From a virus (lineage: Duplodnaviria > Heunggongvirae > Uroviricota > Caudoviricetes), in the IMG/VR virus record IMGVR_UViG_2529292836_000016: DNA of 50,087 bases. One strand, 5' to 3'. Shown here one piece after another: positions 24,064 through 43,954 of the stretch. How positions within the stretch are numbered: position 1 is the stretch's first letter; each line of letters opens with the position of its first letter. Below the pieces are notes generated by a model, which was given only the letters and a program-made list of their open reading frames with translations, was not told the DNA's origin and ran no database searches. The position numbers and the translations under genes were made by a program.

Positions 24064-25065
24064 ATGTCGGTTCGTAAGATTCCATCAGGTAAATGGCTTT
24101 GCGAATGTTATCCCTACGGGGCATCGGGAAAACGCATTCGTAAACAGTTTGCGACAAAAAGTGAGGCGCTCTCTTATGAGCGCCGTTTAATGAATAGTAG
24201 AGTTGGAGACGAGTTTCAAGATGGTTCTGGTCCTCGTCTTTCTGAGTTGATTGCTCGTTGGTTTGAGATGTACGGTAAAACCTTGTCCTCTGGTGCAGAG
24301 CGCAAAGTCAAACTTGAGGCGATTTGTTCCAGGCTGGGAGATCCATTTGCTTCGCAGTTTGACAAAAATATGTTTGCTACTTATCGGGAAAGAAGGCTAT
24401 CAGGAGAATGGAATCCCAAGGGGAAGAAAAAACTTAGTGAAGCAACCGTTAATCGCGAGCAGTCATATCTACATGCTGTTTTTGCCGAACTGAAGCGCCT
24501 TGGGGAGTGGTCTGGTGAAAACCCCCTGACTGGTATTCGCAAGTTTCGTGAGGAAGAAAAGGAACTGGCGTTTCTGTATGTAGATGAGATTGAACGCCTT
24601 CTGATTGCGTGTGATGAGTCACGGAATAAAGATTTGGGGGTTGTTGTCCGTATTGGGCTTGCGACTGGTGCTCGGTGGAGTGAAGCAGAAGGATTAAAGC
24701 AATCTCAAGTACTGCCCGGTCGAATCACATTTGTTAAAACTAAAGGAAAGAAGAACCGCACTGTACCGATTTCACCTCAATTGCAGGCTATGCTTCCTAA
24801 AAAACGAGGAGCGCTATTTTCACCATGTTATGAGGCTTTTGACGCTGCAATTAAGAGAGCGAAGATCGAGCTTCCTGATGGGCAATTAACTCATGTGCTA
24901 CGTCACACGTTTGCCAGTCATTTTATGATGCGGGGCGGAAATATTCTTGTGTTGCAAAAAATACTGGGGCATAGCGATATAAAAATGACTATGCGTTATG
25001 CGCATTTTGCTCCAGGTCATTTAGAGGCTGCTGTTGAATTGAACCCTTTTGACAATAGAGGGTAA
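24064..25065 (+). CDS. int: Prophage integrase, tyrosine recombinase
   Basis: 333 aa; 'HVLRHTFASHFMMRGGNILVLQKILGHSDIKMTMRYAHF' carries the catalytic R/H/Y box; adjacent to att. Confidence 0.9.
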   Translation: MSVRKIPSGKWLCECYPYGASGKRIRKQFATKSEALSYERRLMNSRVGDEFQDGSGPRLSELIARWFEMYGKTLSSGAERKVKLEAICSRLGDPFASQFDKNMFATYRERRLSGEWNPKGKKKLSEATVNREQSYLHAVFAELKRLGEWSGENPLTGIRKFREEEKELAFLYVDEIERLLIACDESRNKDLGVVVRIGLATGARWSEAEGLKQSQVLPGRITFVKTKGKKNRTVPISPQLQAMLPKKRGALFSPCYEAFDAAIKRAKIELPDGQLTHVLRHTFASHFMMRGGNILVLQKILGHSDIKMTMRYAHFAPGHLEAAVELNPFDNRG

Positions 25066-25171
25066 AAAGTGGCGATAAAAAGTGACAATAGATTCAAATG
25101 GCGTTGTATAGAGCCATTTTCAAAGTTAATAAAATCATAAGGTTATGATTTATAAATGGTGGTTGATAGTT

Positions 25172-25226
25172 TTTAAAATCCCTCGGCGTTCGCGCTGTGT
25201 GGGTTCAAGTCCCACTCCGGGTACCA
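25172..25226 (+). other. Partial tRNA-Leu (UAA-type, leuZ-like) 3' segment, anticodon loop to CCA; prophage att core
   Basis: 'ttaaaatccctcggcgttcgcgctgtgTgggttcaagtcccActccgggtacca' gives T-arm GTGGG/TTCAAGT/CCCAC, acceptor TCCGGGT, discriminator A, CCA. No 5' acceptor strand (ACCCGGA) upstream, so not a complete tRNA. Confidence 0.7.
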
Positions 25227-25268
25227 TGGGAAACATCAGAATAATCAAAGCAATAAGCAGTGTCGTGA

Positions 25269-25291
25269 AACCACCTTCGGGTGGTTTTTTT
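25269..25291 (+). terminator. Intrinsic terminator downstream of the tRNA-derived segment
   Basis: ccacc-ttcg-ggtgg hairpin (UUCG loop) followed by TTTTTTT. Confidence 0.75.
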
Positions 25292-25467
25292 GTGCATGCA
25301 ATTCACGCCCTGTGCATATCCTGTGCTCACGGGGTGCAATGAGCTGCAATCTACAGCCTGGCAATGCCGAATTGAACGTGTCGCCTCCAGCATAGAGAAC
25401 CAGGCCGCTTTGCCTGTTTTCCGGTACTCTTCCGGGAAGGGGGGCCTGCTGAGCAAACTGTAATGCT

Positions 25468-26208
25468 CTAGCCACCCTGAGTACAAAGTTGCTTAATTCG
25501 TGCAATCACCTCATCTCTGTACTTCTGGTGTCCGCGCATAGCCCTTGGATGGGCAATTCTGAAACAGATTGCATTACCTGTTTTGAACTCCCATAGCTTC
25601 CCCGGAATGACTGCAGAAGTCTCATAGCCGCCCAGCTCAGTAAGCACCTGTTTTATGATGTAGTCTGTTCTCCGGGCTCCAGATGCAAAGATGATGAAAT
25701 CAGGCTCAAGGTGTTTAATTTGTACCGACAGCAGCTTCAGCGAGGCTAATATAACTTCCTGCACTTCATTTTGAGGGCGATTGAGAGGGGTCAGTCCGTC
25801 GTAATCCCACGCCAGTAGATTGGCATACACGATTGCCTGGGGAGAAATATTAAGCTCCCGGGCCAGCCTGAAATGATATTGCGTGAAGCGGCTACGTGAT
25901 TTGAGGTTGGCGGTGCCATAATTTTGTACCGGAAGATGTTTCCTGTAACGATCTACAGCTTCTTCAACCACCTGCCCGATGGTGACGTCAGGTATAAGTC
26001 CCAACCCCCGTGATATCGTATTCTTACCATTCAGCGTATTCCAGCCTGCGGTTTCACGTCCAACCAGCATGATTTTTACCGGTGAATGCCAGTATTCTTC
26101 AAAGGGCACGGGTAAAAATACGCCTGAGTATTTATCCTCATTCAGGTTAAATGACTGGGCGTTAACTTCCTGCAATATCCGTTTGTACGCGTCTAATAGC
26201 TTTTCCAT
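25468..26208 (-). CDS. Hypothetical protein; possibly uracil-DNA-glycosylase superfamily
   Basis: 246 aa; weak N-terminal 'GRETAG' and C-terminal 'HPR' motifs at positions compatible with UDG motifs A/B; pipolins commonly carry a UDG. Low-confidence guess. Confidence 0.3.
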   Translation of the reverse strand: MEKLLDAYKRILQEVNAQSFNLNEDKYSGVFLPVPFEEYWHSPVKIMLVGRETAGWNTLNGKNTISRGLGLIPDVTIGQVVEEAVDRYRKHLPVQNYGTANLKSRSRFTQYHFRLARELNISPQAIVYANLLAWDYDGLTPLNRPQNEVQEVILASLKLLSVQIKHLEPDFIIFASGARRTDYIIKQVLTELGGYETSAVIPGKLWEFKTGNAICFRIAHPRAMRGHQKYRDEVIARIKQLCTQGG

Positions 26209-26288
26209 TCTTCAATCCTGCCCCGTAATAAAAACACCTTCAGATATATATTATTTTCATGATATCAATCAGATACATGAGGATAAAT

Positions 26289-27488
26289 ATGCAAAAATCC
26301 TTCCGATTCACCAATTCATCCATCAAAGCCCTTCCGGCAAACACAGATACCAGATCTACAGAGCTAGAGGTATCTGATACCGAAGTTATTGGACTCAAGT
26401 GCCTCTCAGGTCGAACAGGCAACAAGCGCTTCCTTCTGCGGTATACATTCCACGGTACCAAAAAAAGTATCAGTATTGGCAGATTTCCTGAAATTGATGT
26501 GGGAACAGCCCGGCAAATAGCCCGTCGTCACAAAGAAGCGATTGCGCTGGGAAATGACCCTAAAGCGGAGCGAGATAACTACCGCGCGATGCCAACACTT
26601 GGTGAGTTTTTCCATCAAACCTATGTTCCTTATATAAAGCGCCATAAAAAGTCATGGGATAAGGATGTTCAGCGTTTCACGCAATACATTGAACCTCGTC
26701 TGGGAAAGATACGTTACTGCGATCTCAGGGCCAGAGAGATACAACAGGTGCTGTTTGACATGCTGGAGGGGCGTATTCACGGGCAGCAATATGCGCCGTC
26801 TACCTGTAACAGAGCCCTTGCTATTCTGAAAACGATGGGGCGTTATGCGTTGCGACAGGATGTGCTGGAAAAGAATGAAGCCGATAAGATCCCTTTACTG
26901 AAAGAGAATAATCAGCGGACGCGCTTTTTTGATGCTGATGAGATCAGGCGCATTCTTGACGCTGCTACCCAATATCCCAACAAAGCTGCCGGGGGATTGA
27001 TAGCCATGTTGTTGTTAACCGGTACACGCAAATCAGAAATGCTTAATGTCAGGCATGAACATATCGACCGGGCCAATCGTACTCTGTTCATTCCTTATAC
27101 AAAAAATGGTCGCAGTCGGACGGTATATCTAAGCGATGCCGCATTATCGATTATTGATGCTATCCCACGAGTTGGCAGTAATCCGTATCTGTTCGCCATT
27201 AAGGATAATGGAAAACCGATATCGGAACCCCGATGGGCATATGAAAAAATACTGGCACAGTGCGGTATAGACAAGAATGAAGTCTGTTTTCACACCACAC
27301 GTCATTCTGTTGCCTCTTTACTGGTTTCGAGTGGTCAATTCAGCCTGTATGACGTTAAAGCCCAACTGGCGCATGCCAGTATTCAGAGTACAGAACGTTA
27401 CGCGAAATTAACACCGGAACGTATGCGTCAGACAGGGCAGGGAGTGACTGACCTGCTTCTGAATACTGCGGCTACGAAGCAGATGTGA
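26289..27488 (+). CDS. int: P4-type integrase (tyrosine recombinase with DUF4102-type arm-binding N-terminus)
   Basis: Trimmed to ATG with GAGGA RBS; N-terminal 'FTNSSIKALPAN...FLLRYTFHGTKKSISIGRFPEIDVGTARQIARRHKEAIALGNDP', C-terminal 'CFHTTRHSVASLL...ERYAKL'. Confidence 0.85.
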   Translation: MQKSFRFTNSSIKALPANTDTRSTELEVSDTEVIGLKCLSGRTGNKRFLLRYTFHGTKKSISIGRFPEIDVGTARQIARRHKEAIALGNDPKAERDNYRAMPTLGEFFHQTYVPYIKRHKKSWDKDVQRFTQYIEPRLGKIRYCDLRAREIQQVLFDMLEGRIHGQQYAPSTCNRALAILKTMGRYALRQDVLEKNEADKIPLLKENNQRTRFFDADEIRRILDAATQYPNKAAGGLIAMLLLTGTRKSEMLNVRHEHIDRANRTLFIPYTKNGRSRTVYLSDAALSIIDAIPRVGSNPYLFAIKDNGKPISEPRWAYEKILAQCGIDKNEVCFHTTRHSVASLLVSSGQFSLYDVKAQLAHASIQSTERYAKLTPERMRQTGQGVTDLLLNTAATKQM

Positions 27489-27518
27489 CTACTTTTTAGC
27501 AAACTATAAATATGGAGA

Positions 27519-27761
27519 ATGAGGATGCATTTAAAATGCCCACAGTGTGGCAGTTGTAATACATTGATAAGTTCAGCAGGAAAACTGCCATCAATAACCG
27601 ATAATAAACGCTCTGGGTATATTAGCCTGGAGTTTTTACCTGAAATACTGAAAGAAATTATTAAGGCTATTAAAAAACTATTTGGATTCCTTGAACAGTG
27701 TGAAAGGAATAATGCGCCAGTGCTTATCTGTATGGACTGTGGGTATTATGAAAGAATTTAA
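27519..27761 (+). CDS. Small zinc-ribbon protein (two CxxC pairs)
   Basis: 80 aa; 'CPQCGS' and 'CMDCGY'; immediately downstream of integrase, followed by a strong terminator. Confidence 0.5.
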   Translation: MRMHLKCPQCGSCNTLISSAGKLPSITDNKRSGYISLEFLPEILKEIIKAIKKLFGFLEQCERNNAPVLICMDCGYYERI

Positions 27762-27804
27762 ATAGAAAACCAATAACTGTAAATAATAGTTATGCGGATG
27801 TATA

Positions 27805-27838
27805 AAAACCCCGATACGTTAATCGTATCGGGGTTTTT
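27805..27838. terminator. Bidirectional intrinsic terminator
   Basis: 10-bp perfect stem ccccgatacg/cgtatcgggg with A-run before and T-run after. Confidence 0.75.
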
Positions 27839-27856
27839 GTTTATGAGGATTATTCA

Positions 27857-28228
27857 ATGAAATTTGTCTCGAACTGGCAAGACCTGCCGTCGCTCCTTCT
27901 TCCGGAGTCAGTAATGAGTCTGTTGAAAACAGAGCTGGTACTCCCATTTGAAGATGAATACTCTGCAATGAGTTTCTGGGATGAAGTCGGGGTGACATTA
28001 ATATATGTCGAGCCCGATGATGTGCCTGAAGATATTAAAGCGCAGGTATTAAATGTGATTCATCAGTTAATTGCAAATCCAGAATTTGTAGTCCGTCTGA
28101 CAGATGACTATTACCTGATGCTTTCTGTTACGGAAGATAACGGGAACGGTATTTATCTGTTATTTCACCCCGATTGCCCTCTGAAGGGTATTGATTTATT
28201 AGTTTCTATGGCCGAATCACGCTATTAA
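27857..28228 (+). CDS. Hypothetical protein (gene 1 of a three-gene cassette)
   Basis: 123 aa, acidic, AT-rich codon usage; no recognisable motif. Confidence 0.55.
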   Translation: MKFVSNWQDLPSLLLPESVMSLLKTELVLPFEDEYSAMSFWDEVGVTLIYVEPDDVPEDIKAQVLNVIHQLIANPEFVVRLTDDYYLMLSVTEDNGNGIYLLFHPDCPLKGIDLLVSMAESRY

Positions 28229-28253
28229 ACACAAGCAAAACCAGGAACGCAAA

Positions 28254-28787
28254 ATGAGTAAATCAAAATTAGTTAAAAATAATGTTGAGTCAGTTTCGAA
28301 GGAGATTAAAAATGAGGCAGAGGTTATTCATGAAAATCTCAGTGCAGATGAACAAACATTATCTGATGTAAAAGACTATCAGTTGCTCATTGAAACAGGC
28401 CAGGCAGAAAAAATCAGTCCTAAGGCAAGTGGTATGCTGACATGGCAACTGGCGATATCAGAGGTGGACAATGAACTTTATCTTCGTCTGGTGGCAAATG
28501 GCTGTGGAGGGTTGTTCTCTAAGGACTGGATCTCACTTTCAAAGATTGCATCTGTTCTGGAAACACAACCTGCTACCGGCTTCTCATCCGGAGTATTCAG
28601 GCCGCTATTCAAAGGGACAAGCGCCAACAATGCAGGTTTTCTGGCTGCAGTTTTACGCTCCCCGGATATATGTCTGCTGGAGGCACATCCAGAGAAGTTA
28701 TTTACTCATGTATTATACCCGGACTGGAGGGAGCGGTTGAATAAACTTAATACGATCAGTAGCCAGGAAAAGATTACAGAGGATTAA
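28254..28787 (+). CDS. Hypothetical protein (gene 2 of a three-gene cassette)
   Basis: 177-aa ORF, short intergenic gaps to neighbours. Confidence 0.55.
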   Translation: MSKSKLVKNNVESVSKEIKNEAEVIHENLSADEQTLSDVKDYQLLIETGQAEKISPKASGMLTWQLAISEVDNELYLRLVANGCGGLFSKDWISLSKIASVLETQPATGFSSGVFRPLFKGTSANNAGFLAAVLRSPDICLLEAHPEKLFTHVLYPDWRERLNKLNTISSQEKITED

Positions 28788-28859
28788 TTTATTTCCTGCA
28801 CTGTTATACAACCAGAAATCACCACACACCACTATTTACTTTCTAAAGGAAAATTTATT

Positions 28860-29294
28860 ATGCAAACCCAATATGCCTTAAAACAGGCAGGATTAACTCT
28901 GCCTGTTACTAAAGAATTTCAGCAGCATATTACTACTCTTCTGGCAAATCAGGTTTTACAAAAAATAACTGAGGCAGTGGTTATTAATTTCCGTGATCCG
29001 GACTACAGTGCAGAATCCGGGGGCTTTCATCCCGTTGAAATACGGTTTATCCGTAAGAATAATGAATGGTATTTTGATTATGTCACAGATTTTAGTTATA
29101 TGGGGCGTGTCTACCCTGAGCTGGAAAAAGAAATTGATTTTTGCTGGTCGGGGAATTATGTCTTCCATTATCTGATTGGGGATATTTCACTGGCAGCAGA
29201 GAGGAATGAACTCTGGTCCCTGTGGGAGCGTAATTTTATGGAATATCTCTCTATGGGGATTTACCGGGTAACGGTAACTGTGGAAAGTTGTTGA
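28860..29294 (+). CDS. Hypothetical protein (gene 3 of a three-gene cassette)
   Basis: 144-aa ORF; followed about 110 nt downstream by an intrinsic terminator. Confidence 0.55.
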   Translation: MQTQYALKQAGLTLPVTKEFQQHITTLLANQVLQKITEAVVINFRDPDYSAESGGFHPVEIRFIRKNNEWYFDYVTDFSYMGRVYPELEKEIDFCWSGNYVFHYLIGDISLAAERNELWSLWERNFMEYLSMGIYRVTVTVESC

Positions 29295-29407
29295 CCCGTT
29301 ATGAACAGGAAGAAAGCGGGCGGCTTTGTAATCTACTGTATGTGGCGTGCATCACAGCATGGAGATGATGTCTCTTTTTCCTGGCTGTTCGCATAAACAA
29401 GTGCAGA

Positions 29408-29439
29408 CACGGGGGATCTCAGATCCCTCGTGATTTTTG
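29408..29439 (+). terminator. Intrinsic terminator after the three-gene cassette
   Basis: cacgggggatct...agatccctcgtg stem followed by ATTTTTG. Confidence 0.6.
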
Positions 29440-29467
29440 CCCCCTATGGTGCATTCTCCAGTAGCAG

Positions 29468-29510
29468 GGTGATAACGGTTAATCCATTACCCCAACGACA
29501 GTATTACACC
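29468..29510. repeat. Copy 1 of an about 43-bp imperfect direct repeat (core CATTACCCCAACGNCAGTNTTACACC)
   Basis: 'ggtgataacggttaatccattaccccaacgacagtattacacc'; second copy at 40255-40297. Confidence 0.6.
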
Positions 29511-29595
29511 GGTAATAAATGTTCATGAATACAGTCAGTTATGTGGGTTTTGAGGTGGACTATGTCATCGTTGACGATAACTGAAGGTTTTACAG

Positions 29596-29823
29596 ATGTA
29601 TAAAACTCGCGGTGAAAGGATCGCAGAAAGGCTGTGCTGGATATTACTACAACTGTATACCGGTAATACGGTATCGGTTAATGATATATGTCAGCGTTTC
29701 GCGGTCAGTCGCCGAACCGGACAGCGTGATTTGTTGAGAGTTGAAATTGTAACGGAAACTATTTCACCTGGAAGGGTAAGGCTGGCAAATTTGATAAGGG
29801 AACGAGTTAGACGAAATTTTTAA
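29596..29823 (+). CDS. HTH-only ORF; possibly a truncated WYL-type regulator remnant
   Basis: 75 aa 'RIAERLCWILLQLYTGNTVSVNDICQRFAVSRRTGQRDL' resembles the N-terminal HTH of the regulator at 30785-31687 but lacks a WYL domain. Confidence 0.35.
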   Translation: MYKTRGERIAERLCWILLQLYTGNTVSVNDICQRFAVSRRTGQRDLLRVEIVTETISPGRVRLANLIRERVRRNF

Positions 29824-29904
29824 TCGAATCCATATCAATTCTATAAAATATGAAACTTAACGGGAGTAAATATACACTCCCGTTATAATGCAACCTTTTT
29901 TTAA

Positions 29905-30723
29905 CTACTCAAATGATATTAATTTGGGTGCGACAGTGTTTTTATGACATGTTAAATTCGTAAGATCAATAATATCATGAAACAATTTTATGTCGTCGTC
30001 AGTGAGCTCTACGTCTGGATCAGCTAAATCGGCACAGGTAACATTTAACCAGTGTGTTAATGAATCAATCCTGTTTGAAGTAATATATTCAGTGTGACCA
30101 ATATCCCACTTCCAGTTGATCACCCGAGCAGGTCTGAATCTCACCTCCCGAACCCCAATTGGCGTTACTGACTCTACGAGAGGGTATATCGTGTTAAGTA
30201 CTTTATCATGTTCACTGTAGATATTTAAATGCCCCATTTTTGAACCGTAAACCATTTTCATTATGTTCTCTGTATAACTTGTTATTGGGGTGGCTCCGGC
30301 CATAGAGATTGTTAAGAGAATATTATCATTTTTAATATAGGGTAATGTATTGTTTATTAATCGAGTCCCTAAAGAATGACCCATTATGATCACATTACGC
30401 TTTTCTTTAACGTATATTTCGTTTATTACGTGTGCTAATTTTTCTCTGTTATTAACTGCTGCTTTCGTTGCATTATACCAGGCCTGACGCGCTTTAAATG
30501 GAATGGAGATTGATGACAATAAAGGAGATGTTCTCAGGGGGAAGAGAGTATATAACCCCCACTTGTTCGCTATGTCAGAACTTAATATGGATAGTAGATT
30601 TGCCGATTCCCATTTATAGTATCTGACATCAAGGCCACACCCTGCTTTAATTCGGTTAAACCATGATATATCATTTTCGGTCAGAAACCCTGATACAACA
30701 AGAAGAACGGGGCATTTTTTCAT
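29905..30723 (-). CDS. Alpha/beta-hydrolase-fold protein (GHSLG nucleophile elbow)
   Basis: 272 aa; 'VIIMGHSLGTRL' GxSxG motif; AT-rich; immediately downstream of and co-oriented with the WYL regulator. Confidence 0.55.
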   Translation of the reverse strand: MKKCPVLLVVSGFLTENDISWFNRIKAGCGLDVRYYKWESANLLSILSSDIANKWGLYTLFPLRTSPLLSSISIPFKARQAWYNATKAAVNNREKLAHVINEIYVKEKRNVIIMGHSLGTRLINNTLPYIKNDNILLTISMAGATPITSYTENIMKMVYGSKMGHLNIYSEHDKVLNTIYPLVESVTPIGVREVRFRPARVINWKWDIGHTEYITSNRIDSLTHWLNVTCADLADPDVELTDDDIKLFHDIIDLTNLTCHKNTVAPKLISFE

Positions 30724-30784
30724 GGTAACTCCATTTTTTAGCTTACAAAAATAGCACTCAATGAAAATTATATTATCCGTGTCA

Positions 30785-31687
30785 TTACGGGGCGTTACTT
30801 GGCTGGGTGTAACGTTTCAGTGCGGATTGTATATCTTCAGCAAATTGTTGACGGATTGAGGCCGGTTGTATTACTTCGACATCCGGTATCCAGTATTTCA
30901 TTAAAGGCATTATCTGATCTGTGTGTGTTACACGTGATATCACCAGTAAATCGCCAGACCGGGAAGTATGAATTATTTCCTGTCCTGGCAATAGATGACG
31001 GTGGGTAAACCACGGAGCAACATGTGCGGAAACTGAAATAAGAACTTCGATAAGGTCTTCGCTATACCAGATACCATCTGTCTTTTCTATTTTTTCATTA
31101 ATTTCGGGGATTATCCTGAAAGAGATATTACTCATGCAAACGTCTTTGACAGATGAGATAACAAAGCTTTTTAATGTACTGTCATGGACGGCAGCGAGAT
31201 ACCACAATCCGTTGTCATTAACCAGTCTGTATGGCTCAACAGCCCGAAACTCTTTATCTTTGTAATTAAAATTTACTTTCTTCTGTGACAGGATGGCATC
31301 GGATAATACATTCAGAATTGACATGAATGATCCGCAGTTTTCGTATGGACGTTGTTTTATCAGAAACGGGTTGTTTTTCGTGTTACCTAACAAAATACTC
31401 AGTAGTCTGTCATCCCAGCGAGGGAACAGCCCTTCAATACCCAGGATGCGCGTGAAATGACGTAAATCAGCATTGCTGCGTTGACCGAGAACACCGTCAG
31501 ACAGGCGATAGCGACCATTTTGTCGAATCAGATTAAGATAGGACAGGCGCTGAGTAAGATCACGACGGATAGTTTTTTCGCAAACGTTAAATTCCTCAGA
31601 TAACTCCCGGACGGCTAGTGACTCACCATTGTTCAGGCGAGTTAATATCAATCCGAGTCGATATCCAAGTTTATCGTGCTTACCCAT
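30785..31687 (-). CDS. WYL-domain transcriptional regulator (HTH + WYL + C-terminal extension)
   Basis: 300 aa; N-terminal HTH '[21 protein letters not shown]'; central '[30 protein letters not shown]' WYL signature. Confidence 0.7.
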
Positions 31688-31737
31688 TCGTTTATCCGGT
31701 TAATGCCAGCGAAGAGGATATTTTCAGCAAAGTAACG

Positions 31738-31846
31738 GACAGGATGAGTCCACTTTTACTGTGACGGAGAAAAAAATTAACTCATTAATTATCAATATAT
31801 TAAAACATTACTGGAATCATCGAATAACATGTGGACTCATCCTGTC
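31738..31846. promoter_or_regulatory. 16-bp perfect inverted repeat pair (GACAGGATGAGTCCAC / GTGGACTCATCCTGTC) upstream of the WYL regulator
   Basis: Arms at about 31738-31753 and 31831-31846, 77-bp spacer, within the divergent promoter region 31688-32066. Confidence 0.4.
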
Positions 31847-32066
31847 CATGTGTATTTTTACGTTCAGGGTGATAATTATTATCCTGACCTGTACATGACA
31901 TGTTTTTGCTGCATATTTGACCATGCACTTTTGCCATCAAGTCGGAGAGGCAGGGGGGAACGTAAGATCCGAAGGTTAGAGAGGTTATCAGCAATTACAA
32001 TGATGATTAATATTTTCATAATATCGGAGAACATCATATTAGTTGAAATAACATAAAGGTGGTTCT

Positions 32067-32393
32067 ATGTATTTACATATCAGAAAGTATCAACTAGTAA
32101 ATGCGAGATGGCGTGATGTCATTGATCTGACAGATTATGAAGAAACAATCAGGCAGGTTGTCGGTACATTATTTGGAAATGATTTTATTGAGGTCAGCGT
32201 TGAAACAAATTGTTTTACTCTGACAGTAAACAGTACAAGCAGTAAAATACCACACGGCATACTGGTGAATATGGGGAAAAGGCTGGCGGCTAATCTCCAG
32301 AGTATCACCTGTCATGCCATGCGGATCTATCATGTAAATGGCCATCCTGACGCGCGGCAGTTATTTCACTGTTTTGATGCCGATTGCCTGTGA
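32067..32393 (+). CDS. Hypothetical protein
   Basis: 108-aa ORF, convergent with the polymerase gene. Confidence 0.4.
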   Translation: MYLHIRKYQLVNARWRDVIDLTDYEETIRQVVGTLFGNDFIEVSVETNCFTLTVNSTSSKIPHGILVNMGKRLAANLQSITCHAMRIYHVNGHPDARQLFHCFDADCL

Positions 32394-32441
32394 TTAAGCC
32401 CCCAACTTCTGTTAAAGGAGTTGGGGGAGATTTAACGGTTA

Positions 32442-35042
32442 TCAGACTGGAAGACAGAATGTCGGATATTTACGGGCTATGATATCCATCAGTGACTTCA
32501 TTCGCGGTGTTACAGAACTAAATTTCATTTGGGGTATTTTTGCTCTTACCGCATTTTTTACATCAGTCACCGTTACTGAATAGCCTTCTGACGTCAGCCA
32601 TTCAGCAACCTCTTTACAGGAATAACTTTTTTTATCTTTCAGCATAAGCCCCCATTGGCACTGAGTCAGCGCCCGGAGAAATAGTCTGACTAAAATATCA
32701 TCACTACGTTTGCTTCCGACTTTTAGTTTCATATCAGAAAACACCGTCCGGCAATAGAGAAAATCACCCCAGTCATCCCAGTCAGCCAGGGTCTTCAGTG
32801 TATGCGTTTGCCGCCAGTCGTCGAAAAGAGAGCGTTGCTGCAGAGCCTCTTCCATATTATCCCACGGGCGGGAAAACATCAGTAAATGCCCTTCATTCAT
32901 GGCGGGCTGTACGGGCTGGCGTTTGAAATCGAATTCCAGATTAAGACGGATATCCTGTTCCCGGGATACCAGATCGCTTTCCGACAGCCACATCTCACGC
33001 GTTGATATCAACGTACTTCGGGATAACGTCTGACCGGGTAAACGATTAAGGTAAAGATCTACCATATAGTCGTTATAGTCACTGCGTGGAATATCGGCAG
33101 GAGGTTTGACGCCAGCCCTGGCATGAACAACCGGTTTTCCCTGAATAGCTCTATAGGTTAACTGCCCCCGGGTTTTCATGGCGATAAGCTGGCTGACCTC
33201 ATGCTTACATGTCAACATTGATGAACCCGGATCAACAATATCGCACAGCGACTGGAAGCGGGAAGACAGTGGACCGCTCATGTTTATCTTGTCAAGTGGG
33301 CAATTTGTCAAAAAGCCATCGGTTGTGACGCTGACAACCGATGAATCAGAAGGCAAAGCATTCATGAGTTCCCCGACAACGGCCCGGATAAATCCCGTCA
33401 CATGCGCAGCAAAGAATGGCTGAGTAACCGATGATGGTGGGAGGGATCTGTTTAATCCACGGGCTGTATCAAAGGCGGTTTTGGCGCGAAGGCCCTGAGC
33501 AAGTTTACCATAAAGCGAGTTGCCAATTTCTTTCCAGAATTTCTCCTCCAGAGAACCTTTAATATGGCGATTACGGTTCTCACGGACCTGTTGAACAAAG
33601 GGAAGAAACACCGATGTTGATTCGCTGTTATGTGGGGAGGTGTCACAGATCCAGGGGACGATGATCCCATTATGGATCGTCATCTCTGCCCCGAGCGACA
33701 GAGCAAGTTCGATTTCAGGTGCCGTTGCCCATGATTCGCCACTTAATGGAAAGAATAACCCATATTGATCGGTCCGAACCGGCAGGCTGGGATAGGGAAC
33801 TGATTCCGGGAACCGAAATGTGACAAGCGCAAATCCCATTACATGCCCACAGTAATCGTCCGGATTTTTACTGAGGCGGATGTTCCCGTAATCGGGTGTG
33901 AGGATATCTAATAGCCCGGTGGTATACGCTCCAGCCAGATCGTAGTCATACCAGTGATCAGACGGTGTAACCCCCATCATAAAACACTCATTGCGTCCGC
34001 CGTGGTAACAGTTGATCGGGAACGTTTCAAACAACTCTCTTGAAGGAACACTGGCGGGGTTTTTAATCGTCCGGAATGCCTGTTTCTCCGTGAGCCAGAG
34101 TTCACGGGTTTTAATGTGTGTCCCAAGGCAGACTTCAGGAGAAATATTGTTTTCTTTAAGTGTTTTGGTGAACCGTGAAACTGCCATCGCCCCGATGGTG
34201 GCGGGGACACGATCAATCATCAGCTCCCGGGCGCAAAAATTGCGAACCTGTAAAGCATAACGAACCGCAATCTCGGCATCCCGCAGAGCATAGGCTTCAA
34301 ACCCTGCTCTGTCGCCCAGAAGATATTCACGCATATTGGTTATGGAATAAGGTGCAGGAATGGTGAGTTTGGGAAGACCCAGTAATTCACCACATTCAGC
34401 CAGACCCATACCCCCGGGAGTGATAAGCAGTGTATCGATGAAAGCTACGTTACTGCAACGCGGAGGGGAAGTTCGTTTGTCAAACATTATCTGTTCAGTC
34501 TTTACGCGACGTTCCTGCTGTTCATCAAAATCGATACCGTAACGATTTTTGAAGCTGCTGACAGTACCGCGTATTCCTTTCAGAAGAATTTTGTAGTCTG
34601 ACCAGAAATTGGCAAAGGAGGCGATATCCGCACGAATGAAATGCGCATATATATTAATAATACCGGGCCATTTTGTAATCACACCCGTTTCAAGAAGCGG
34701 TGTAATCGTTTGACAGAGAAATTCCTTAAAAGACAGCCGGGATTTTTTCTGTGAGTCAGGTGGATAGATAATGTTCGATATACCTGTATTATCGGGTAAG
34801 ACAACATAACTCTGATATGACAGAATATCATTCTGTCGTGTTTCAGGGTTGAAAACATATTCGGTATCAAAACCGATATGGAGTGTCAGGTCACTTGAAA
34901 TAACAGATACTTTTTTTGATGCAGGTGGTATCACAGGATAATCATCAAGCGTTTTAGGTCTTTTACGATTGAGCGCAGGCTCTGAAGTCACGGACTGATA
35001 CCCCGAGGCGGCAGCGAGGATGTCCTGCAAATTATTGCTCAT
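32442..35042 (-). CDS. Family-B DNA polymerase, primer-independent (piPolB-like)
   Basis: Trimmed to 'MSNNLQDIL...' (GGAG RBS); 'IGFDTEY' ExoI D-x-E, 'KEIGNSLYGKLAQ' motif B (Kx3NSxYG), 'VTTDGF' motif C-like, 'KTRG' KxY-like. About 866 aa. Confidence 0.7.
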   Translation of the reverse strand: MSNNLQDILAAASGYQSVTSEPALNRKRPKTLDDYPVIPPASKKVSVISSDLTLHIGFDTEYVFNPETRQNDILSYQSYVVLPDNTGISNIIYPPDSQKKSRLSFKEFLCQTITPLLETGVITKWPGIINIYAHFIRADIASFANFWSDYKILLKGIRGTVSSFKNRYGIDFDEQQERRVKTEQIMFDKRTSPPRCSNVAFIDTLLITPGGMGLAECGELLGLPKLTIPAPYSITNMREYLLGDRAGFEAYALRDAEIAVRYALQVRNFCARELMIDRVPATIGAMAVSRFTKTLKENNISPEVCLGTHIKTRELWLTEKQAFRTIKNPASVPSRELFETFPINCYHGGRNECFMMGVTPSDHWYDYDLAGAYTTGLLDILTPDYGNIRLSKNPDDYCGHVMGFALVTFRFPESVPYPSLPVRTDQYGLFFPLSGESWATAPEIELALSLGAEMTIHNGIIVPWICDTSPHNSESTSVFLPFVQQVRENRNRHIKGSLEEKFWKEIGNSLYGKLAQGLRAKTAFDTARGLNRSLPPSSVTQPFFAAHVTGFIRAVVGELMNALPSDSSVVSVTTDGFLTNCPLDKINMSGPLSSRFQSLCDIVDPGSSMLTCKHEVSQLIAMKTRGQLTYRAIQGKPVVHARAGVKPPADIPRSDYNDYMVDLYLNRLPGQTLSRSTLISTREMWLSESDLVSREQDIRLNLEFDFKRQPVQPAMNEGHLLMFSRPWDNMEEALQQRSLFDDWRQTHTLKTLADWDDWGDFLYCRTVFSDMKLKVGSKRSDDILVRLFLRALTQCQWGLMLKDKKSYSCKEVAEWLTSEGYSVTVTDVKNAVRAKIPQMKFSSVTPRMKSLMDIIARKYPTFCLPV

Positions 35043-35088
35043 AGTTAACTCCGAAAAAATGCCGGGAGCTGTGTCCCGGCATAAAGAA

Positions 35089-35727
35089 TCAAGATTTAAT
35101 AACATTTACTACAGATTTGAAAATATCGGTTTTGTGTGATTCATCATCTACATGGATAAAGGAAACGAGTTTCCTGCCTACTTTAATCAGGATACCGCGT
35201 TGCGTCTTTTCCACAGACGGGGTAACGTGTGCAGATAACAGACAATGTTCATGTAAATGAAGAAACTTTTTTGAGGCGTAGCCGCCATGTAATCGGGCTT
35301 GAATGTCAAGATACATATCATCAAGAGAACCGGGTTCTCCTGATTCACTCAATACCGGATAACCCTTCTTATCAAAGAGGTTAAGGATAGATTTACTATC
35401 ATGTTCGAACAGGGTAACACCGTAAATGTATTTCATTCGAAAGGTGAGGGAATCGGTGGTGTAGACCTCCTCCTGACGATTGAAATTTTTGAGACGCCTG
35501 GCTAATTCATTAAAAACAGCACGAGCAGTAGCCGTGTCCTGCAGGGTGTAGGTATAAAGTACGAAGCCATCTGTGCCGATGAGCTTTACTAAGTTGTCCA
35601 TAATCGTGATAGCGAGAACTAATGCAAAGGACAGATATTTTTCATCGTTGTCTACAGCTGTGTTTGCTGCTTCAGGAAGAATGTTCAGTGCATTATTAGC
35701 ATTATTTGCTGTGTTCTTAGTAACCAT
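35089..35727 (-). CDS. Hypothetical protein, co-transcribed between alpA-like gene and the polymerase
   Basis: 212-aa ORF, AT-rich. Confidence 0.5.
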   Translation of the reverse strand: MVTKNTANNANNALNILPEAANTAVDNDEKYLSFALVLAITIMDNLVKLIGTDGFVLYTYTLQDTATARAVFNELARRLKNFNRQEEVYTTDSLTFRMKYIYGVTLFEHDSKSILNLFDKKGYPVLSESGEPGSLDDMYLDIQARLHGGYASKKFLHLHEHCLLSAHVTPSVEKTQRGILIKVGRKLVSFIHVDDESHKTDIFKSVVNVIKS

Positions 35728-35917
35728 TTATATCACCTTTAAGTTTGTTTTGACGATGTGCATTTTCCCACTCAACAATATCATCAAGAGAGAATCGTAT
35801 AGCCCGCCCAATTCTGATGAAGGGCGGGAGTTTTCCTGGGTTGCGCGATATATCTGACGCAACCGTGGATGCGGAAAGATTAAATCTTTCTGCAAACTGC
35901 TTAATGGTTAAATACAT
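35717..35917 (-). CDS. AlpA-family HTH regulator / excisionase-like
   Basis: 66 aa; 'LTIKQFAERFNLSASTVASDISRNPGKLPPFIRIGRAIRFSLDDIVEWE' matches the AlpA/Xis pattern. Confidence 0.65.
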   Translation of the reverse strand: MYLTIKQFAERFNLSASTVASDISRNPGKLPPFIRIGRAIRFSLDDIVEWENAHRQNKLKGDINGY

Positions 35918-36059
35918 AAACCTCCGGTTTTAGAGAAGAAGAAACCACGCGGATTTAATATCAATCCACATTCTTTGATGACTTAATGCAGGGCCCTGCA
36001 GAAGCATGCAATGACAATACCGTCCTTAAACGAGTGTTGCATCAATCACGAATCACAGA

Positions 36060-37196
36060 TCATAGGTTCATTTTTGTGTCATAACTTTCTATGACCTGAG
36101 AAACCACTGCGTGTGATGTCGCTGCATTGTGAAAAGCGTAGCGACGGGTCGCCGTGAGTGAATGGTGATTTAGCAGATGGGAAGCGATTGCAATATCCCC
36201 GGTCGCCTGTAGTACCCGGGTGGCAAAGGTACGGCGCAGGTCATGCATCCGCAGGTTATCAATGTTGGCATCCCGACAAATACGGGCAAAGGTTGCACGC
36301 GGATATGCCAGAGGGCGGGCATTGTCGGTTAGTTGTGGAAAAATGTAAGTTTTGCTGAGCATCAGGTCTTGCTGGCACTCGACAACTGCAATGGCTGGAG
36401 GTGCAAGTGGGCAGGTGAAAGGGTGTCCGGACTTTGTATCAGGCAGTATGAGTTGATGCATATCCGGGTGCCAGTACTCCCATTTCAGGGTACATACCTC
36501 ACCAATACGCATCCCCGTATAAAGAGCAAGCAATATAGAATCAGCTGCCGGTGTTTGCAGCGCTGTTGCCGCGTTAATAAAGCGCGGGATTTCTGTCGCT
36601 GACAGTGTGCGATAGCGAATGTTATTTTCTTTCAGATAGCGGACATGTGTCATCGGGGAATGCGTGATCCATCCAGCACGTACTGCCAGAGAGCATATTT
36701 TGGACAATATTGCGAGGATACGGTTTACTGTTGACGGACGTAATTTTTCCCGTAAGCCAGCAGCATATTGTTCTAGTTCTCCTGCCGTGATGTCGCGAAG
36801 TTGCCGCTTGCCCCAGAACGGGCGAACGTAGAGGTTGAGTTTTGACAACTCTGACTGAGGACTCTTTTTATACAACTGCAAATCCGGTAGCCACAGGTCA
36901 TTGATGGCCTGTTCCACAGTTAATCGACGGGACTGAACCGCAAGACGATTTTTATCAGCAAGCAGTTTCATCACATGCTGACGGGCATCCTCAACGCAGA
37001 GCTGAGGGAACTGACCCAGGGTTTCATATATACGCTGATTGTTTATAGTGGCACGAAAGGCCAGCGTGATCCGATTGGGATACACCAGAGCACGCAGGTT
37101 TTGGCAGTGAATATCACGGTATTCCTGACAACCCGTGAGGGGATGTGGAAGTTGGTGAAGTGATTTGTTGCTGAAACGCAGATCCAGAATAGGCAT
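36060..37196 (-). CDS. Tyrosine recombinase (XerC/D-like)
   Basis: 378 aa; 'LRMHDLRRTFATRVL...ASHLLNHHSLTATRRYAFH' catalytic R-H-R-Y box. Confidence 0.8.
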   Translation of the reverse strand: MPILDLRFSNKSLHQLPHPLTGCQEYRDIHCQNLRALVYPNRITLAFRATINNQRIYETLGQFPQLCVEDARQHVMKLLADKNRLAVQSRRLTVEQAINDLWLPDLQLYKKSPQSELSKLNLYVRPFWGKRQLRDITAGELEQYAAGLREKLRPSTVNRILAILSKICSLAVRAGWITHSPMTHVRYLKENNIRYRTLSATEIPRFINAATALQTPAADSILLALYTGMRIGEVCTLKWEYWHPDMHQLILPDTKSGHPFTCPLAPPAIAVVECQQDLMLSKTYIFPQLTDNARPLAYPRATFARICRDANIDNLRMHDLRRTFATRVLQATGDIAIASHLLNHHSLTATRRYAFHNAATSHAVVSQVIESYDTKMNL

Positions 37197-37339
37197 CGTA
37201 TTTCTCCTGTAAATGACACTGGAAAAATACGATGTGAGGTTATAGTCTGCCAGTTACAGCTTTCACAGTTCATCAGGTGAAAAAACGCAGATTCGGATAT
37301 AATGGCAACACAATTCCATGTCGCCATTATATTAAGAAA

Positions 37340-38470
37340 CTACAGTTTCATGATCTTGTTCGCTATTTTTTCGAAGTAAACCTCATTCTTAAGAAGAGTG
37401 ATATTGTTTGTTTGAACACCCAGACCACTGGAGGTTGACTGGAAGTTGAGTGAACCACTTATCACTGTGGACTTTCCTGATAAAAAGGAAATCAACTCCT
37501 TGGAAGATGGTGCCCACTCAGGGTTTAAGAGTAATGCAATATAGATATATGTCTTACGAAGCAATTGTTCTATATCTTTTTTATGCCCTGTAGTGTTTTG
37601 CTTACCTTTAATGCAAATAGATTTGATTATGAACTCATCAGGGCTGGTTAAAGGCGTTTTAAACTCACTCAGTGATCCATCGTTATGAATGACTTCATAA
37701 GGCAGCATAGATAAAATGATCAATGCAATCATTTTAGGATGATAAAGGTAGTTATCACGAATGATTTTTCCTGCCTTCATTGTATTGAGCGTTGTTTGAA
37801 TAAATACAAAAAGATATTCAGAGCAAAAGTAACAAAACACAAGCCAGGATAGGTCAATGGATGGAATGTTAATATCCTTAGGTAGTTTGTTTAGCCAGTA
37901 TTCAGACTTCAAAAAGGTCCTGATTTCAACAGTATATTCATGCATTTTTGCGCTGAAATCAAGCATTGCTACTTGACCTGATTGTTCCGTAACTGTGTGG
38001 TCTATAAATGTTAGTGTATTGCACATTTTATCCAGCGTGTTTTGAAAACAAGAAAGGAGTTCGGCATTATTATTACCATTAACCGCAGATGAAAGTTCAG
38101 TTTTAATAAATGCATCCAGTAGCATACAGATTTCTTTCGGAATGACATTTTTACGGGATTGCTGTGAATAGAAATGTACTGCCAGTAAATTAAAGGCAGT
38201 GCACTCCTTTTTTAACCATTGTTCGAGCACTGGGACGTGCTGAAAAAAATTGATATGCTTAGCAGTAGATGCTGATGGAGATAGTACATGAAGAATATCT
38301 ACAGCAGGCTTCATTTGCAATATTTGATCGGATTCGGTAGTCGTCATTAGTTCCAGTAATTGCTGTTCAGAAAATAGTTTAGACAGGTGATCAATGTCTT
38401 TTTGGTATTGATTAAGTTTTGTTAAATTCCCCGGTATACGGGTTACATTGTTTTTCATTTTCTCGAACAT
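37340..38470 (-). CDS. Hypothetical protein (AT-rich orphan)
   Basis: 376-aa ORF, very AT-rich; no recognisable motif. Confidence 0.5.
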   Translation of the reverse strand: MFEKMKNNVTRIPGNLTKLNQYQKDIDHLSKLFSEQQLLELMTTTESDQILQMKPAVDILHVLSPSASTAKHINFFQHVPVLEQWLKKECTAFNLLAVHFYSQQSRKNVIPKEICMLLDAFIKTELSSAVNGNNNAELLSCFQNTLDKMCNTLTFIDHTVTEQSGQVAMLDFSAKMHEYTVEIRTFLKSEYWLNKLPKDINIPSIDLSWLVFCYFCSEYLFVFIQTTLNTMKAGKIIRDNYLYHPKMIALIILSMLPYEVIHNDGSLSEFKTPLTSPDEFIIKSICIKGKQNTTGHKKDIEQLLRKTYIYIALLLNPEWAPSSKELISFLSGKSTVISGSLNFQSTSSGLGVQTNNITLLKNEVYFEKIANKIMKL

Positions 38471-38976
38471 AATTTTATCCTCGTTTGAATTATTACACTG
38501 ATTTAAAAAGTAGCATGTCGTGTTAGCGAGGTAATCCTAAAACGTGAATGGCAGCAGGGGCAAGCTTGAATCTGCGTAAGGATATGGCTTGAATTTAATG
38601 GTGTAATCAGTGAGTTAGAGGCTTATAGCCATTTAAATACAATAAGTTATGATAATATATGGCGGGTGTAAATCGGTTAGTTTTTATGGTTAAAATATGA
38701 GCATTGTGAGATTTGAGATATGATGGTTTTTAAATTACATACAAGTTACCCCTGATGATCAGTATTAATACCAGAATGATACATGCGAGCAGCACCCAAT
38801 CCTGTACTATTTATGATGGCTATACAAGGCTGAAACTTTGAGTCGTATGTTGCCAGGAGGATTAATGTCCACAAGGCCCAGATAGAATGATTTCTCAGAT
38901 ATTAAAGTTGAAACTTATTAACTATGTGAGAGGCTGATATTTATTCAGTCTCTCATTTGTTTTTATCGTTTTAAAG

Positions 38977-40212
38977 TTAAAAGGAAATAAATAATGCCTT
39001 CCGCCGATGAATCAGTGTACTGATTTCTCGAAAATCAGCCTCAATACTACCAACATCACCAAAGACTTCACCACTAATCTCTCTTCGATTTTTCATGAAA
39101 TTGGTGCTTAATAAGCTTTCTTTTTTTAGTGTCACTAATTTTGGTTTTATATCGTTATAGAAATGCTTACGGCTTACCCTGATGCTATGAATCGAGTAGT
39201 AAACTGTTTTATACATCAAAAATATAAGTAACTGGCCGAGAAGATATTCTTTTTCAATGTATTTATATTGAGAGGATTTTTCGCGTTTCGCCAGGTAGAA
39301 AACATGAGGTGCGATGATGGTGGGGATGAAATCCAGTGCTGGAGAGGTTTTTGTTTTTTCTGTTTTTCTTCCGGATTGAAGATGTTGAAGTACAGAGTAT
39401 ACAATGCTTAATATTATGGCATTGCTTATATTATTAATTTCAGTTGGGTAAATATGCAGGTTGCTTATCAATTCTGAAAGGCAAAGTAAAACACCAGTGA
39501 TGTTGGGTTTTCTGCCAGAGATTGTGGTGCTGTTGAAAATGTGACGATTCTTACGACTTATATTGACAAGTTTATGAGTGCAGAACTCTATATGTTCGAC
39601 GATTTTATCTTGACTATTTTTAATGTATTTTGAAATGTTAGTGATCCGGCCATTCAACGTTAGTTCATCAAGCAATATATCATTTTTAATATTGCGAATT
39701 TCATCGCAATGTTCACATTGAGAAACTATCTCATGTAATACATAACTCGACGTATTGCGGGGTGACGCTGATATGTAATCTAAAATAGAAGGTTCGATTT
39801 TGATTTTTTGTTTGTATTTTTTAATGCACTGTTTGATTGTTTTTTGTAGAGTATTTGAGATGTGTTTTTTATATTCTTTTAGAAAATCTTGCTCTAAAAA
39901 GAGTGAGGAGAAGATCAACTGCTGGCGAGATAATTTAATCTCAGGCTTGATCAATTTAATCCGAAAAACTCTTCCCTCCAACTCATAGCTGAACATGGAA
40001 GATAAGTCATAGTGGGGTGATAAATGTTCGAGTAACGACATTCGTGTATTCATTAGCCGCTTGAATTTATGGTCAGCATACATAAGTGTTTTTTTTATTT
40101 GCTCATCATAAAGTGGGCCGATAGCGCAGTTGGCAATACTCATTCTATCCGGAGACCTCCAGTCAGCAGGGGAATCACATTGACGGTCATCATTACTATC
40201 AAAGGGCATCAA
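38977..40212 (-). CDS. Hypothetical protein (AT-rich orphan)
   Basis: 411-aa ORF, Lys/Ile/Asn-rich; no recognisable motif. Confidence 0.5.
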   Translation of the reverse strand: MMPFDSNDDRQCDSPADWRSPDRMSIANCAIGPLYDEQIKKTLMYADHKFKRLMNTRMSLLEHLSPHYDLSSMFSYELEGRVFRIKLIKPEIKLSRQQLIFSSLFLEQDFLKEYKKHISNTLQKTIKQCIKKYKQKIKIEPSILDYISASPRNTSSYVLHEIVSQCEHCDEIRNIKNDILLDELTLNGRITNISKYIKNSQDKIVEHIEFCTHKLVNISRKNRHIFNSTTISGRKPNITGVLLCLSELISNLHIYPTEINNISNAIILSIVYSVLQHLQSGRKTEKTKTSPALDFIPTIIAPHVFYLAKREKSSQYKYIEKEYLLGQLLIFLMYKTVYYSIHSIRVSRKHFYNDIKPKLVTLKKESLLSTNFMKNRREISGEVFGDVGSIEADFREISTLIHRRKALFISF

Positions 40213-40254
40213 CGTTGCCGATTATGGATCATGTCAGCTCCACACACCAGAACG

Positions 40255-40297
40255 GGTGATATATGGATCATCATTACCCCAACGGCAGTTTTACACC
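40255..40297. repeat. Copy 2 of the about 43-bp imperfect direct repeat
   Basis: 'ggtgatatatggatcatcattaccccaacggcagttttacacc'; pairs with 29468-29510. Confidence 0.6.
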
Positions 40298-43932: not shown

Positions 43933-43954
43933 CAAAGCGGAAGGGGGCTTGCTC

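Follow-up and report, generated by a model that had tools for sequence, protein, structure and literature searches.

The WYL regulator and the hydrolase are encoded side by side in an E. coli pipolin

We analysed the 50,087-nucleotide stretch of DNA recorded in IMG/VR as the Caudoviricetes sequence IMGVR_UViG_2529292836_000016 (hereafter the window), and in particular two neighbouring genes coding for a 300-aa WYL-domain regulator and a 272-aa serine alpha/beta hydrolase. A preliminary description of this DNA had reported an HTH-WYL gene directly upstream of, and co-oriented with, a hydrolase gene carrying a GHSLG motif, and both open reading frames (ORFs) were found on the minus strand where it had placed them (Table 1). 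Its remark that the pair is AT-rich was likewise borne out, the GC content being 0.397 for the two genes together (0.374 for the hydrolase, 0.425 for WYL) as compared to 0.484 over the whole window and 0.527 in the prophage next to the pipolin. Among 5426 complete E. coli genomes, on which all presence counts given here are based, 304 carry the polymerase gene piPolB, 183 a full-length hydrolase gene and 190 a full-length WYL gene. Since the pair is full-length in about 183-190 genomes and annotated in RefSeq, we conclude that both are genuine, conserved genes rather than chance ORFs.

The window matches sequence of E. coli NCCP 13717 at 100% identity. A P2-like prophage extends from position 1 to ~25065, and from ~25185 to the window end lies a pipolin, an element defined in Gammaproteobacteria by piPolB together with an IntSXT-type integrase, DUF2787, WYL, IntP2/Xis and integration into a tRNA gene with a direct repeat (PMC11551731). 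Specifically, the gene order is an IntSXT-type integrase, two orphan genes, DUF2787, the gene of a 75-aa HTH protein, the hydrolase-WYL pair, a 108-aa ORF (orf108), an 887-aa primer-independent PolB, annotated as a type-B DNA polymerase and weakly matching Pfam DNA_pol_B_2, a second integrase with Xis and, distally, a type I restriction-modification (RM) cargo; piPolB, integrases, DUF2787, WYL and a tRNA-Leu site are all present. In prophage-free strains the same pipolin abuts tRNA-Leu beside pgsA/uvrC. ARAGORN detected zero tRNA genes in the window, because the prophage separates the pipolin from the intact tRNA-Leu, and an Rfam scan of positions 25000-40500 returned zero RNA families.

In the pipolin survey of Mateo-Caceres & Redrejo-Rodriguez (NAR 2024; PMC11551731), WYL is a marker of the conserved core, linked to piPolB, IntSXT and DUF2787 across Gammaproteobacteria, and defence systems occupy the distal variable half. 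The window has this same core, at tRNA-Leu near pgsA/uvrC, with the type I RM genes in distal position. The integrase-bearing island of the preliminary description is thus confirmed as to its two integrases and changed as to its nature: it is a pipolin (piPolB element) at tRNA-Leu beside a P2-like prophage, with the WYL gene in its conserved core rather than among the variable defence cargo. The survey makes no mention of the hydrolase, of DUF726, of the operators or of the slot after WYL described below (PMC11551731).

The regulator matches Pfam HTH_DeoR at residues 10-61 (3e-8), WYL at 124-183 (1.6e-10) and WCX at 212-290 (2.9e-9), that is, it combines the three domains of the wHTH-WYL-WCX architecture in one chain of ~300 aa, and it matches the PADLOC WYL models at 1e-21. 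A profile built from 14 sequences of its WYL clade retrieved from the PDB the chains of PafBC (6sj9, 8e-10) and DriD (7tzv/8tp8, about 1e-7), and zero BrxR or CapW chains at E<=1; zero PDB matches were obtained by phmmer with a single WYL protein. Single-stranded DNA (ssDNA) is the ligand of CapW, BrxR, DriD and PafBC, and every characterised wHTH-WYL-WCX member uses it (PMC11662680, PMC13622015, PMC10853764, PMC11804915).

Two conserved operator candidates lie at the putative promoter of the WYL gene

The spacer between WYL and hydrolase genes is 61-62 bp long in all type-A pipolins examined (the pipolin type of the window, see below), and no promoter-like or terminator-like site was called on the minus strand of positions 30724-30784. 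Judged from this arrangement, together with the ribosome-binding site within the spacer and the terminator-like hairpin past the hydrolase gene (Table 1), the gene pair has the appearance of a single operon.

Upstream of the WYL gene we found two palindromes of the form GGAC-N7-GTCC, which are just the two such sites in the 50-kb window. The proximal operator candidate spans about -38 to -24 relative to the predicted -10 hexamer; with the distal candidate it forms a perfect 17-nt inverted repeat, each arm of which holds GGAC-N7-GTCC. The -35 window reads CTCATC, which is non-consensus, and no -35 element is recognisable.

The arrangement was compared across loci of Citrobacter, Buttiauxella, Scandinavium, Enterobacter, Cedecea, Mangrovibacter, Leclercia, Limnobaculum, Yersinia, Amphritea and one metagenomic relative, the proteins of which show 46-99% identity. 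In orthologues with a confirmed start codon the proximal site begins ~62-70 nt, mostly 64, before the ATG, and its flanking bases vary; in the pipolin-type orthologues it is followed by 11 variable nt and then by a conserved nAnAAT (GAAAAT, CATAAT, GATAAT or GACAAT). With one exception, every orthologue examined also has the inverted distal copy, located between -146 and -177; outside types A and B it usually departs from GGAC-N7-GTCC at 1-2 positions. These data provide a strong phylogenetic footprint for a putative operator and -10 box.

The window search did not find GGAC-N7-GTCC upstream of piPolB, of the integrases or of xis. As the motif stands solely at the WYL promoter, WYL is without visible control of the functions of the element, and the idea of WYL as a master regulator of piPolB and the integrases through the same operator was rejected, the motif being nowhere else in the window.

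The hydrolase belongs to a small family restricted to mobile elements

Profile searches for the hydrolase family, which the preliminary description had recommended, gave two matches above cut-off: DUF726, at 27.6 bits (cut-off 22.6) over residues 80-196, and LCAT, at 23.8 bits (cut-off 21). The RefSeq name of the protein is 'DUF726 domain-containing protein'. The GHSLG nucleophile elbow lies at residues 115-119, and a Ser117/Asp173/His210 triad in canonical order is invariant in alignments of 14 and of 50 sequences. With the 50-sequence alignment, AlphaFold returned a confident alpha/beta-hydrolase model (pLDDT 86.6), in which the N-terminus forms beta-strand 1; the single-sequence AF2 model (pLDDT 41) was unusable. 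The closest matches are minimal lipases and carboxylesterases, and neither a signal peptide nor a transmembrane (TM) segment was detected, the maximum 19-residue Kyte-Doolittle hydropathy being 1.1. The enzyme is accordingly modelled as soluble, cytoplasmic and lipase/esterase-like, which is as far as the data reach on its substrate. A secreted or type VI secretion system (T6SS) lipase was considered and rejected, given that signal peptide, TM segment and immunity-like partner are all missing.

With the DUF726/DUF900 hydrolases, such as cinquedea and the eukaryotic TMCO4/Mil1, the pipolin hydrolase shares the G-H-S-x-G elbow, the Ser-Asp-His order and lipase-like matches; the DUF726 match of 27.6 bits covers 117 residues only, and the protein is a minimal, 272-aa, intracellular form. 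Cinquedea is secreted and TMCO4-type proteins have TM segments, whereas the pipolin hydrolase has neither signal peptide nor TM segments. Cinquedea, an archaeal DUF726-domain hydrolase, is a bactericidal phospholipase (bioRxiv 10.64898/2026.06.10.730825), and offers by analogy a precedent, not evidence, for the pipolin enzyme. The CBASS patatin phospholipase CapV and the Tle lipases of T6SS differ from it in fold family or architecture, and any analogy with them would be functional only; the pipolin hydrolase lacks a cyclic-nucleotide sensor domain, and no immunity protein was identified for it.

When 1.84 billion (1.84e9) representative proteins were searched exhaustively with phmmer, only 81 matches were obtained at E<=1e-3, about ten of them full-length at 26-36% identity, and outside the E. 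coli pipolin alleles the full-length relatives reach at most ~36% identity. A word-indexed homologue search recovered near-identical E. coli alleles only; tblastn returned no match among 50,697 isolated phage genomes, and a single weak one on a Vibrio plasmid. In a lambdoid prophage a homologue lies directly after the antiterminator gene Q, adjoining a methyltransferase and RexA/RexB, and on IMG/VR phage contigs homologues lie between Q and the endolysin gene, or on the opposite strand between distal-tail and tape-measure genes. Other homologues are found in a P4-type integrase island, in a prophage accessory region by a serine recombinase and among small phage-like ORFs. The preliminary description had named consistent residence of the homologues in metabolic operons as a finding that would speak against its proposal: none of about 12 contexts is a metabolic operon, the homologues being instead in prophage moron slots, in integrase islands and on a plasmid, and a metabolic enzyme was rejected on the same ground. 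The family thus consists of rare stand-alone morons restricted to mobile genetic elements (MGEs), and the partnership with WYL is specific to pipolins.

The position after WYL is a variable slot

A synteny table of 90 loci distinguishes four types of pipolin. In type A (E. coli, Intestinirhabdus, Citrobacter and Franconibacter), WYL is followed by the hydrolase, and orf108 and piPolB are present. In type B (Buttiauxella, Scandinavium, Enterobacter and E. coli BUCT2930, the last at the same tRNA-Leu), the WYL gene overlaps that of a 146-aa protein that matches no family; WYL and piPolB each share about 71% identity with their type-A counterparts, and neither the hydrolase nor orf108 is present. 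A 149-aa protein follows WYL in type C (Cedecea and others), and a 326-338-aa protein in type D. The hydrolase is therefore specific to one pipolin type and is not a core gene. In some type-B loci (L029, L034 and L077; ~8887-10207 in locus coordinates), the 146-aa ORF is followed by a 299-aa dynamin-like GTPase (MMR_HSR1/Dynamin_N), which matches the PADLOC models of LeoBC at 3e-12 and LeoA at 1e-8, and the two proteins are candidates for a different effector set in the same slot.

At ~30% identity, WYL relatives, mostly of Campylobacterota, precede Cas1f/Cas3f, type I RM, mad2, LeoA/LeoBC and PDC-S26/S48 genes, and McrBC, recognised through Pfam, also lies downstream of a distant relative. 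With a conserved regulator clade and an exchangeable downstream cargo, the pattern is the one expected of a regulated effector slot.

Two further loci of this kind deserve mention. On the metagenomic contigs L017/L018, a 35%-identical WYL relative, with a TGAC-N7-GTCA site 70 nt before its ATG, stands before two small ORFs and three Dynamin_N proteins in an Eleos-like arrangement. In the type-C locus L013 of Cedecea (10497-10958), a 153-aa LRAT/NlpC-P60-like protein, another enzyme of lipid-acyl type near the same regulator, is encoded between DUF2787 and the small HTH gene.

Natural variants in E. coli separate the fates of the two genes

In ~120 E. coli genomes just the last 395 nt of the hydrolase gene are left, with a breakpoint common to the genomes, which makes it probable that a single event generated this IS1-associated deletion. 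Strain PK5074 illustrates it: IS1 has replaced WYL together with the N-terminal half of the hydrolase, which includes Ser117, and piPolB and orf108 are kept.

In at least three other lineages WYL is broken and the hydrolase full-length, namely EC596 (IS3 insertion), M9 (split ORF) and L091/L092 (split or absent), the last carrying a hydrolase allele of 66% identity. The triad is intact in both of the WYL-broken strains examined, EC596 and M9. In addition, four strains, among them F5505-C1, have IS1 between the operators and the WYL ATG, and the hydrolase ORF is intact in F5505-C1. WYL-null strains with an intact hydrolase argue against a repressor of a toxin that is lethal on derepression, and they fit an activator model, since in such a model nothing is expressed without WYL.

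The hydrolase has consistently diverged further than its neighbours WYL, orf108 and piPolB. In L091 it is 66% identical, as compared to 90% for WYL and 86% for piPolB, and in L093 the corresponding values are 84%, 94% and 98%. Its dN/dS ranges from 0.34 to 0.62 against 0.26 for WYL, and its C-terminal 55 residues are the most variable part.

A possible ssDNA-responsive operon, weighed against its alternatives

In domain order the regulator resembles DriD of Caulobacter and PafBC of mycobacteria, two ssDNA-activated activators that are also its best PDB profile matches, over WYL and WCX. At DriD promoters the protein binds over the -35 position, with constant spacing to the -10 box, and no -35 element is present (PMC13004042); the pipolin WYL promoter appears to have the same layout, with the operator candidate over -35, a fixed spacing to the -10 box and no -35. 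DriD and PafBC run chromosomal DNA-damage regulons with many promoters, whereas the pipolin WYL has one motif-bearing promoter in 50 kb, on a mobile element, and a hydrolase as its output. The likeness covers sequence and layout; by analogy, activation and ssDNA binding may extend to the pipolin regulator.

Likenesses also exist with BrxR, CapW and WYL-DE. WYL regulators adjoining defence systems are well known. In those cases, as in the pipolin, the regulator comes first, upstream of variable MGE cargo, with inverted repeats at its own promoter that serve, or in the pipolin are predicted to serve, as operators; distant relatives of the pipolin regulator are found upstream of CRISPR-Cas, RM, Eleos-like and MADS genes. 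The BrxR operator, however, sits downstream of the -10 box (PMC9122601), unlike the pipolin operator candidate over the -35 position; the gene downstream of the pipolin WYL is, unlike in BrxR and CapW loci, part of no recognised defence system; and loss of WYL with retention of the hydrolase is tolerated in nature. The BrxR/CapW-like setting of the preliminary description holds for the relatives upstream of Cas1f/Cas3f, RM, LeoA/LeoBC and mad2, and not for the regulator's profile matches or operator position. Its assumption of WYL control over the hydrolase is supported by the look of a single operon, while the WYL-null strains, the promoter layout and the lack of BrxR/CapW similarity weaken the idea of a repressor that holds down a toxin.

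The best-supported reading, which we put forward tentatively, as possible rather than probable, is that of an autonomous ssDNA-responsive WYL-hydrolase operon, the output of which is an accessory, fast-evolving and MGE-restricted serine hydrolase, most plausibly a conflict effector. The two genes would form a self-regulated operon inside the conserved half of the E. coli pipolin, and a dimeric wHTH-WYL-WCX regulator would bind the two GGAC-N7-GTCC operators at its own promoter. By analogy with the characterised members, it would probably sense ssDNA arising from DNA damage or from phage or MGE replication and, once bound to this ligand, activate the promoter in the manner of DriD and PafBC. 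The hydrolase would then hydrolyse an ester or lipid substrate, leading to abortive infection or to exclusion of phages or other elements. With the proximal operator candidate in the place of a -35 element, at a fixed distance from a weak -10, we consider activation more likely than repression of the BrxR/CapW type. We regard as unlikely the narrower proposal that WYL is a DriD-type ssDNA-triggered activator firing a new single-gene anti-phage or anti-MGE hydrolase effector from an exchangeable slot in the pipolin core.

Several observations weigh against the proposed operon and its conflict role. The pipolin survey assigns WYL to a conserved maintenance module and not to defence cargo (PMC11551731). 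In about 120 of ~300 E. coli pipolins WYL is gone along with the catalytic hydrolase half, which shows that the module can be dispensed with. Neither the hydrolase nor its homologues P0014, P0015 and P0020 match any of the 5027 models of PADLOC-DB v2.0.0, so that the WYL gene does not adjoin a recognised defence system, and no NCBIfam model matches the window hydrolase. None of the homologues outside pipolins has a WYL neighbour. The -10 box and the transcription start are predicted from conservation, an operator over -35 is also common for repressors, and a missing profile match to BrxR and CapW is compatible with structural kinship to them.

That a BrxR/CapW-type WYL repressor silences a toxic abortive-infection hydrolase, until infection-derived ssDNA releases it and the cell dies, would account for the architecture common to BrxR and CapW, for the relatives upstream of known defence systems and for the palindromic operator candidates at the regulator's own promoter, which resemble the BrxR R-boxes (PMC9122601). 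An operator over -35 can block RNA polymerase, and in the ~120 deletion genomes WYL was lost together with the catalytic hydrolase half, not alone. We nevertheless hold this repressor model to be rather improbable in view of the three or more independent WYL-disrupted lineages that keep a full-length hydrolase, of the four strains with IS1 between operators and WYL ATG, of the profile matches to DriD and PafBC with BrxR and CapW unmatched at E<=1, and of an operator position other than downstream of the -10 (PMC9122601). In addition, with no -35 and a weak -10, the promoter would be feeble even if derepressed. A role outside defence, with WYL as the pipolin's own sensor of DNA damage or ssDNA and the hydrolase as a moron esterase serving host fitness, envelope weakening, lysis or DNA release, also seems to us on the doubtful side; in one variant, the hydrolase would help a pipolin devoid of transfer machinery, or a phage, to escape from a damaged cell. 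It has in its favour that the pipolin survey counts WYL among the core genes, in linkage with piPolB, IntSXT and DUF2787 (PMC11551731), and that the hydrolase has a general esterase/lipase fold. It also stays under consideration because some phage homologues lie in the late transcript, as does the lambdoid homologue right after Q and before the lysis genes, and because no known defence model is matched. On the other side, the operator motif is at the WYL promoter only, and not at piPolB, the integrases or xis; types B, C and D lack the hydrolase and have other cargo instead; the enzyme has neither signal peptide nor TM segment; and its rapid divergence and variable C-terminal region are more typical of conflict genes.

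The pair might finally be a decaying or neutral remnant that no longer has a function in E. coli. It is missing from about 40% of the pipolins of this species, insertion sequences and WYL pseudogenes are frequent and the dN/dS of the hydrolase is fairly high, all as decay would have it; yet this ratio is below 1, the ORFs are full-length and the triad invariant in ~183 genomes and in Citrobacter, Intestinirhabdus and Franconibacter, even alleles of just 66% identity have preserved ORF and triad, and the operator candidates and their spacing are conserved over deep divergence. With triad, ORFs and operators so conserved, neutral decay is the least likely of the explanations, and we consider it highly improbable.

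Neighbouring genes and other features of the window

The stand-alone HTH protein of 75 aa is paralogous to the WYL DNA-binding domain, with 27% identity to WYL residues 3-57. Its gene, located after DUF2787, is shared by pipolins of types A, B and C, with identities of 43-99%, and carries a DeoR-family annotation in BUCT2930; being conserved and annotated in divergent pipolins, it was rejected as a pseudogene fragment. The protein is a possible co-regulator, which could compete for or share the GGAC-N7-GTCC operators. The product of orf108, which has no Pfam, NCBIfam or PHROG match, is encoded in all type-A loci, is absent from types B, C and D and is retained in the IS1 deletion variant; it is possible that it acts as a partner or immunity protein. 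Between the convergent ends of orf108 and piPolB, a G+C-rich hairpin likely terminates transcription in both directions and so insulates the WYL operon from that of piPolB.

Among the distal genes of the pipolin, two hypothetical proteins of 376 and 411 aa, encoded between IntP2 and the type I RM genes, have no NCBIfam match and occupy the most AT-rich part of the window (GC 0.34-0.35); they are cargo candidates. The type I RM operon has a YecA-like gene and the gene of a 620-aa cold-shock-domain protein between hsdS and hsdR, and an M48 metallopeptidase gene after hsdR, an unusual set of RM-embedded genes. The P2-like prophage, in tandem with the pipolin, looks complete, with tail, capsid, terminase, replication endonuclease and integrase genes. 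Downstream of its portal gene, a low-GC patch (0.46) contains the gene of a DUF3800 protein, which may be P2 hotspot cargo; a ParM-type partition pair follows it.

Table 1. Positions of the genes and sequence elements discussed, in window coordinates.
Feature	Position	Strand	Remarks
DUF3800 protein gene	~12663-13469	+	P2-like prophage
Integrase of the P2-like prophage	24064-25065		
Copy of the tRNA-Leu 3' end, GGTTCAAGTCCCACTCCGGGTACCA	~25185-25226		Between P2-like prophage and pipolin
Integrases of the pipolin	26259-27488 and 36060-37196		
Stand-alone HTH protein, 75 aa	29596-29823	+	Pfam HTH_11 and HTH_DeoR; convergent with the hydrolase gene
Terminator-like hairpin	29858-29885	-	19 nt past the hydrolase stop; 11-bp stem (5 G-C pairs), T-rich tail
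Serine alpha/beta hydrolase, 272 aa, DUF726-like	29905-30723	-	Second gene of the apparent operon; RefSeq WP_001734864.1
Intercistronic spacer, 61 bp	30724-30784	-	GGAG ribosome-binding site 7 nt before the hydrolase ATG
wHTH-WYL-WCX regulator, 300 aa	30785-31687	-	First gene of the apparent operon; ORF, Pfam, PADLOC, RefSeq WP_001734865.1
Predicted -10 hexamer GAAAAT	31720-31725	-	11 nt downstream of the proximal operator candidate; phylogenetic footprint
Proximal operator candidate, GGACTCATCCTGTCC	31737-31751	.	GGAC-N7-GTCC palindrome; starts 64 nt before the WYL ATG
Distal operator candidate, GGACAGGATGAGTCC	31833-31847	.	Inverted orientation of the proximal site; 160 nt before the WYL ATG
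orf108, 108 aa	32067-32393	+	Divergent from the WYL promoter region; module membership uncertain
G+C-rich hairpin, CCCCCAACTTCT / AGGAGTTGGGGG	32399-32427		Between the convergent ends of orf108 and piPolB
Two hypothetical proteins, 376 and 411 aa	37340-40212	-	Between IntP2 and type I RM genes
Type I RM operon	40516-49845	+	

Significance for pipolin biology

Pipolins, and WYL as a pipolin core gene, are already published. In the literature searched we found no description of the hydrolase as a regulated output, of a GGAC-N7-GTCC pair with DriD-like geometry, of an exchangeable slot after WYL in the pipolin core, or of a hydrolase family restricted to moron positions. It is plausible that the WYL-hydrolase operon is a new anti-phage module. 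If so, a minimal alpha/beta hydrolase would be a new effector family in bacterial immunity, the regulator would be a first case of a WYL switch of activator type on a mobile element with defence cargo, and the supposedly invariant pipolin core would hold an exchangeable cargo slot of its own. With one promoter, two operators, two genes and natural knock-outs, the locus would give a compact handle on the signal sensed by pipolins, and the WYL-disrupted strains (EC596, M9, L091/L092 and F5505-C1) are ready-made material on the direction of regulation. Even if the hydrolase plays no part in conflict, the locus offers a clean natural setting in which to study how WYL promoters are built in E. coli.

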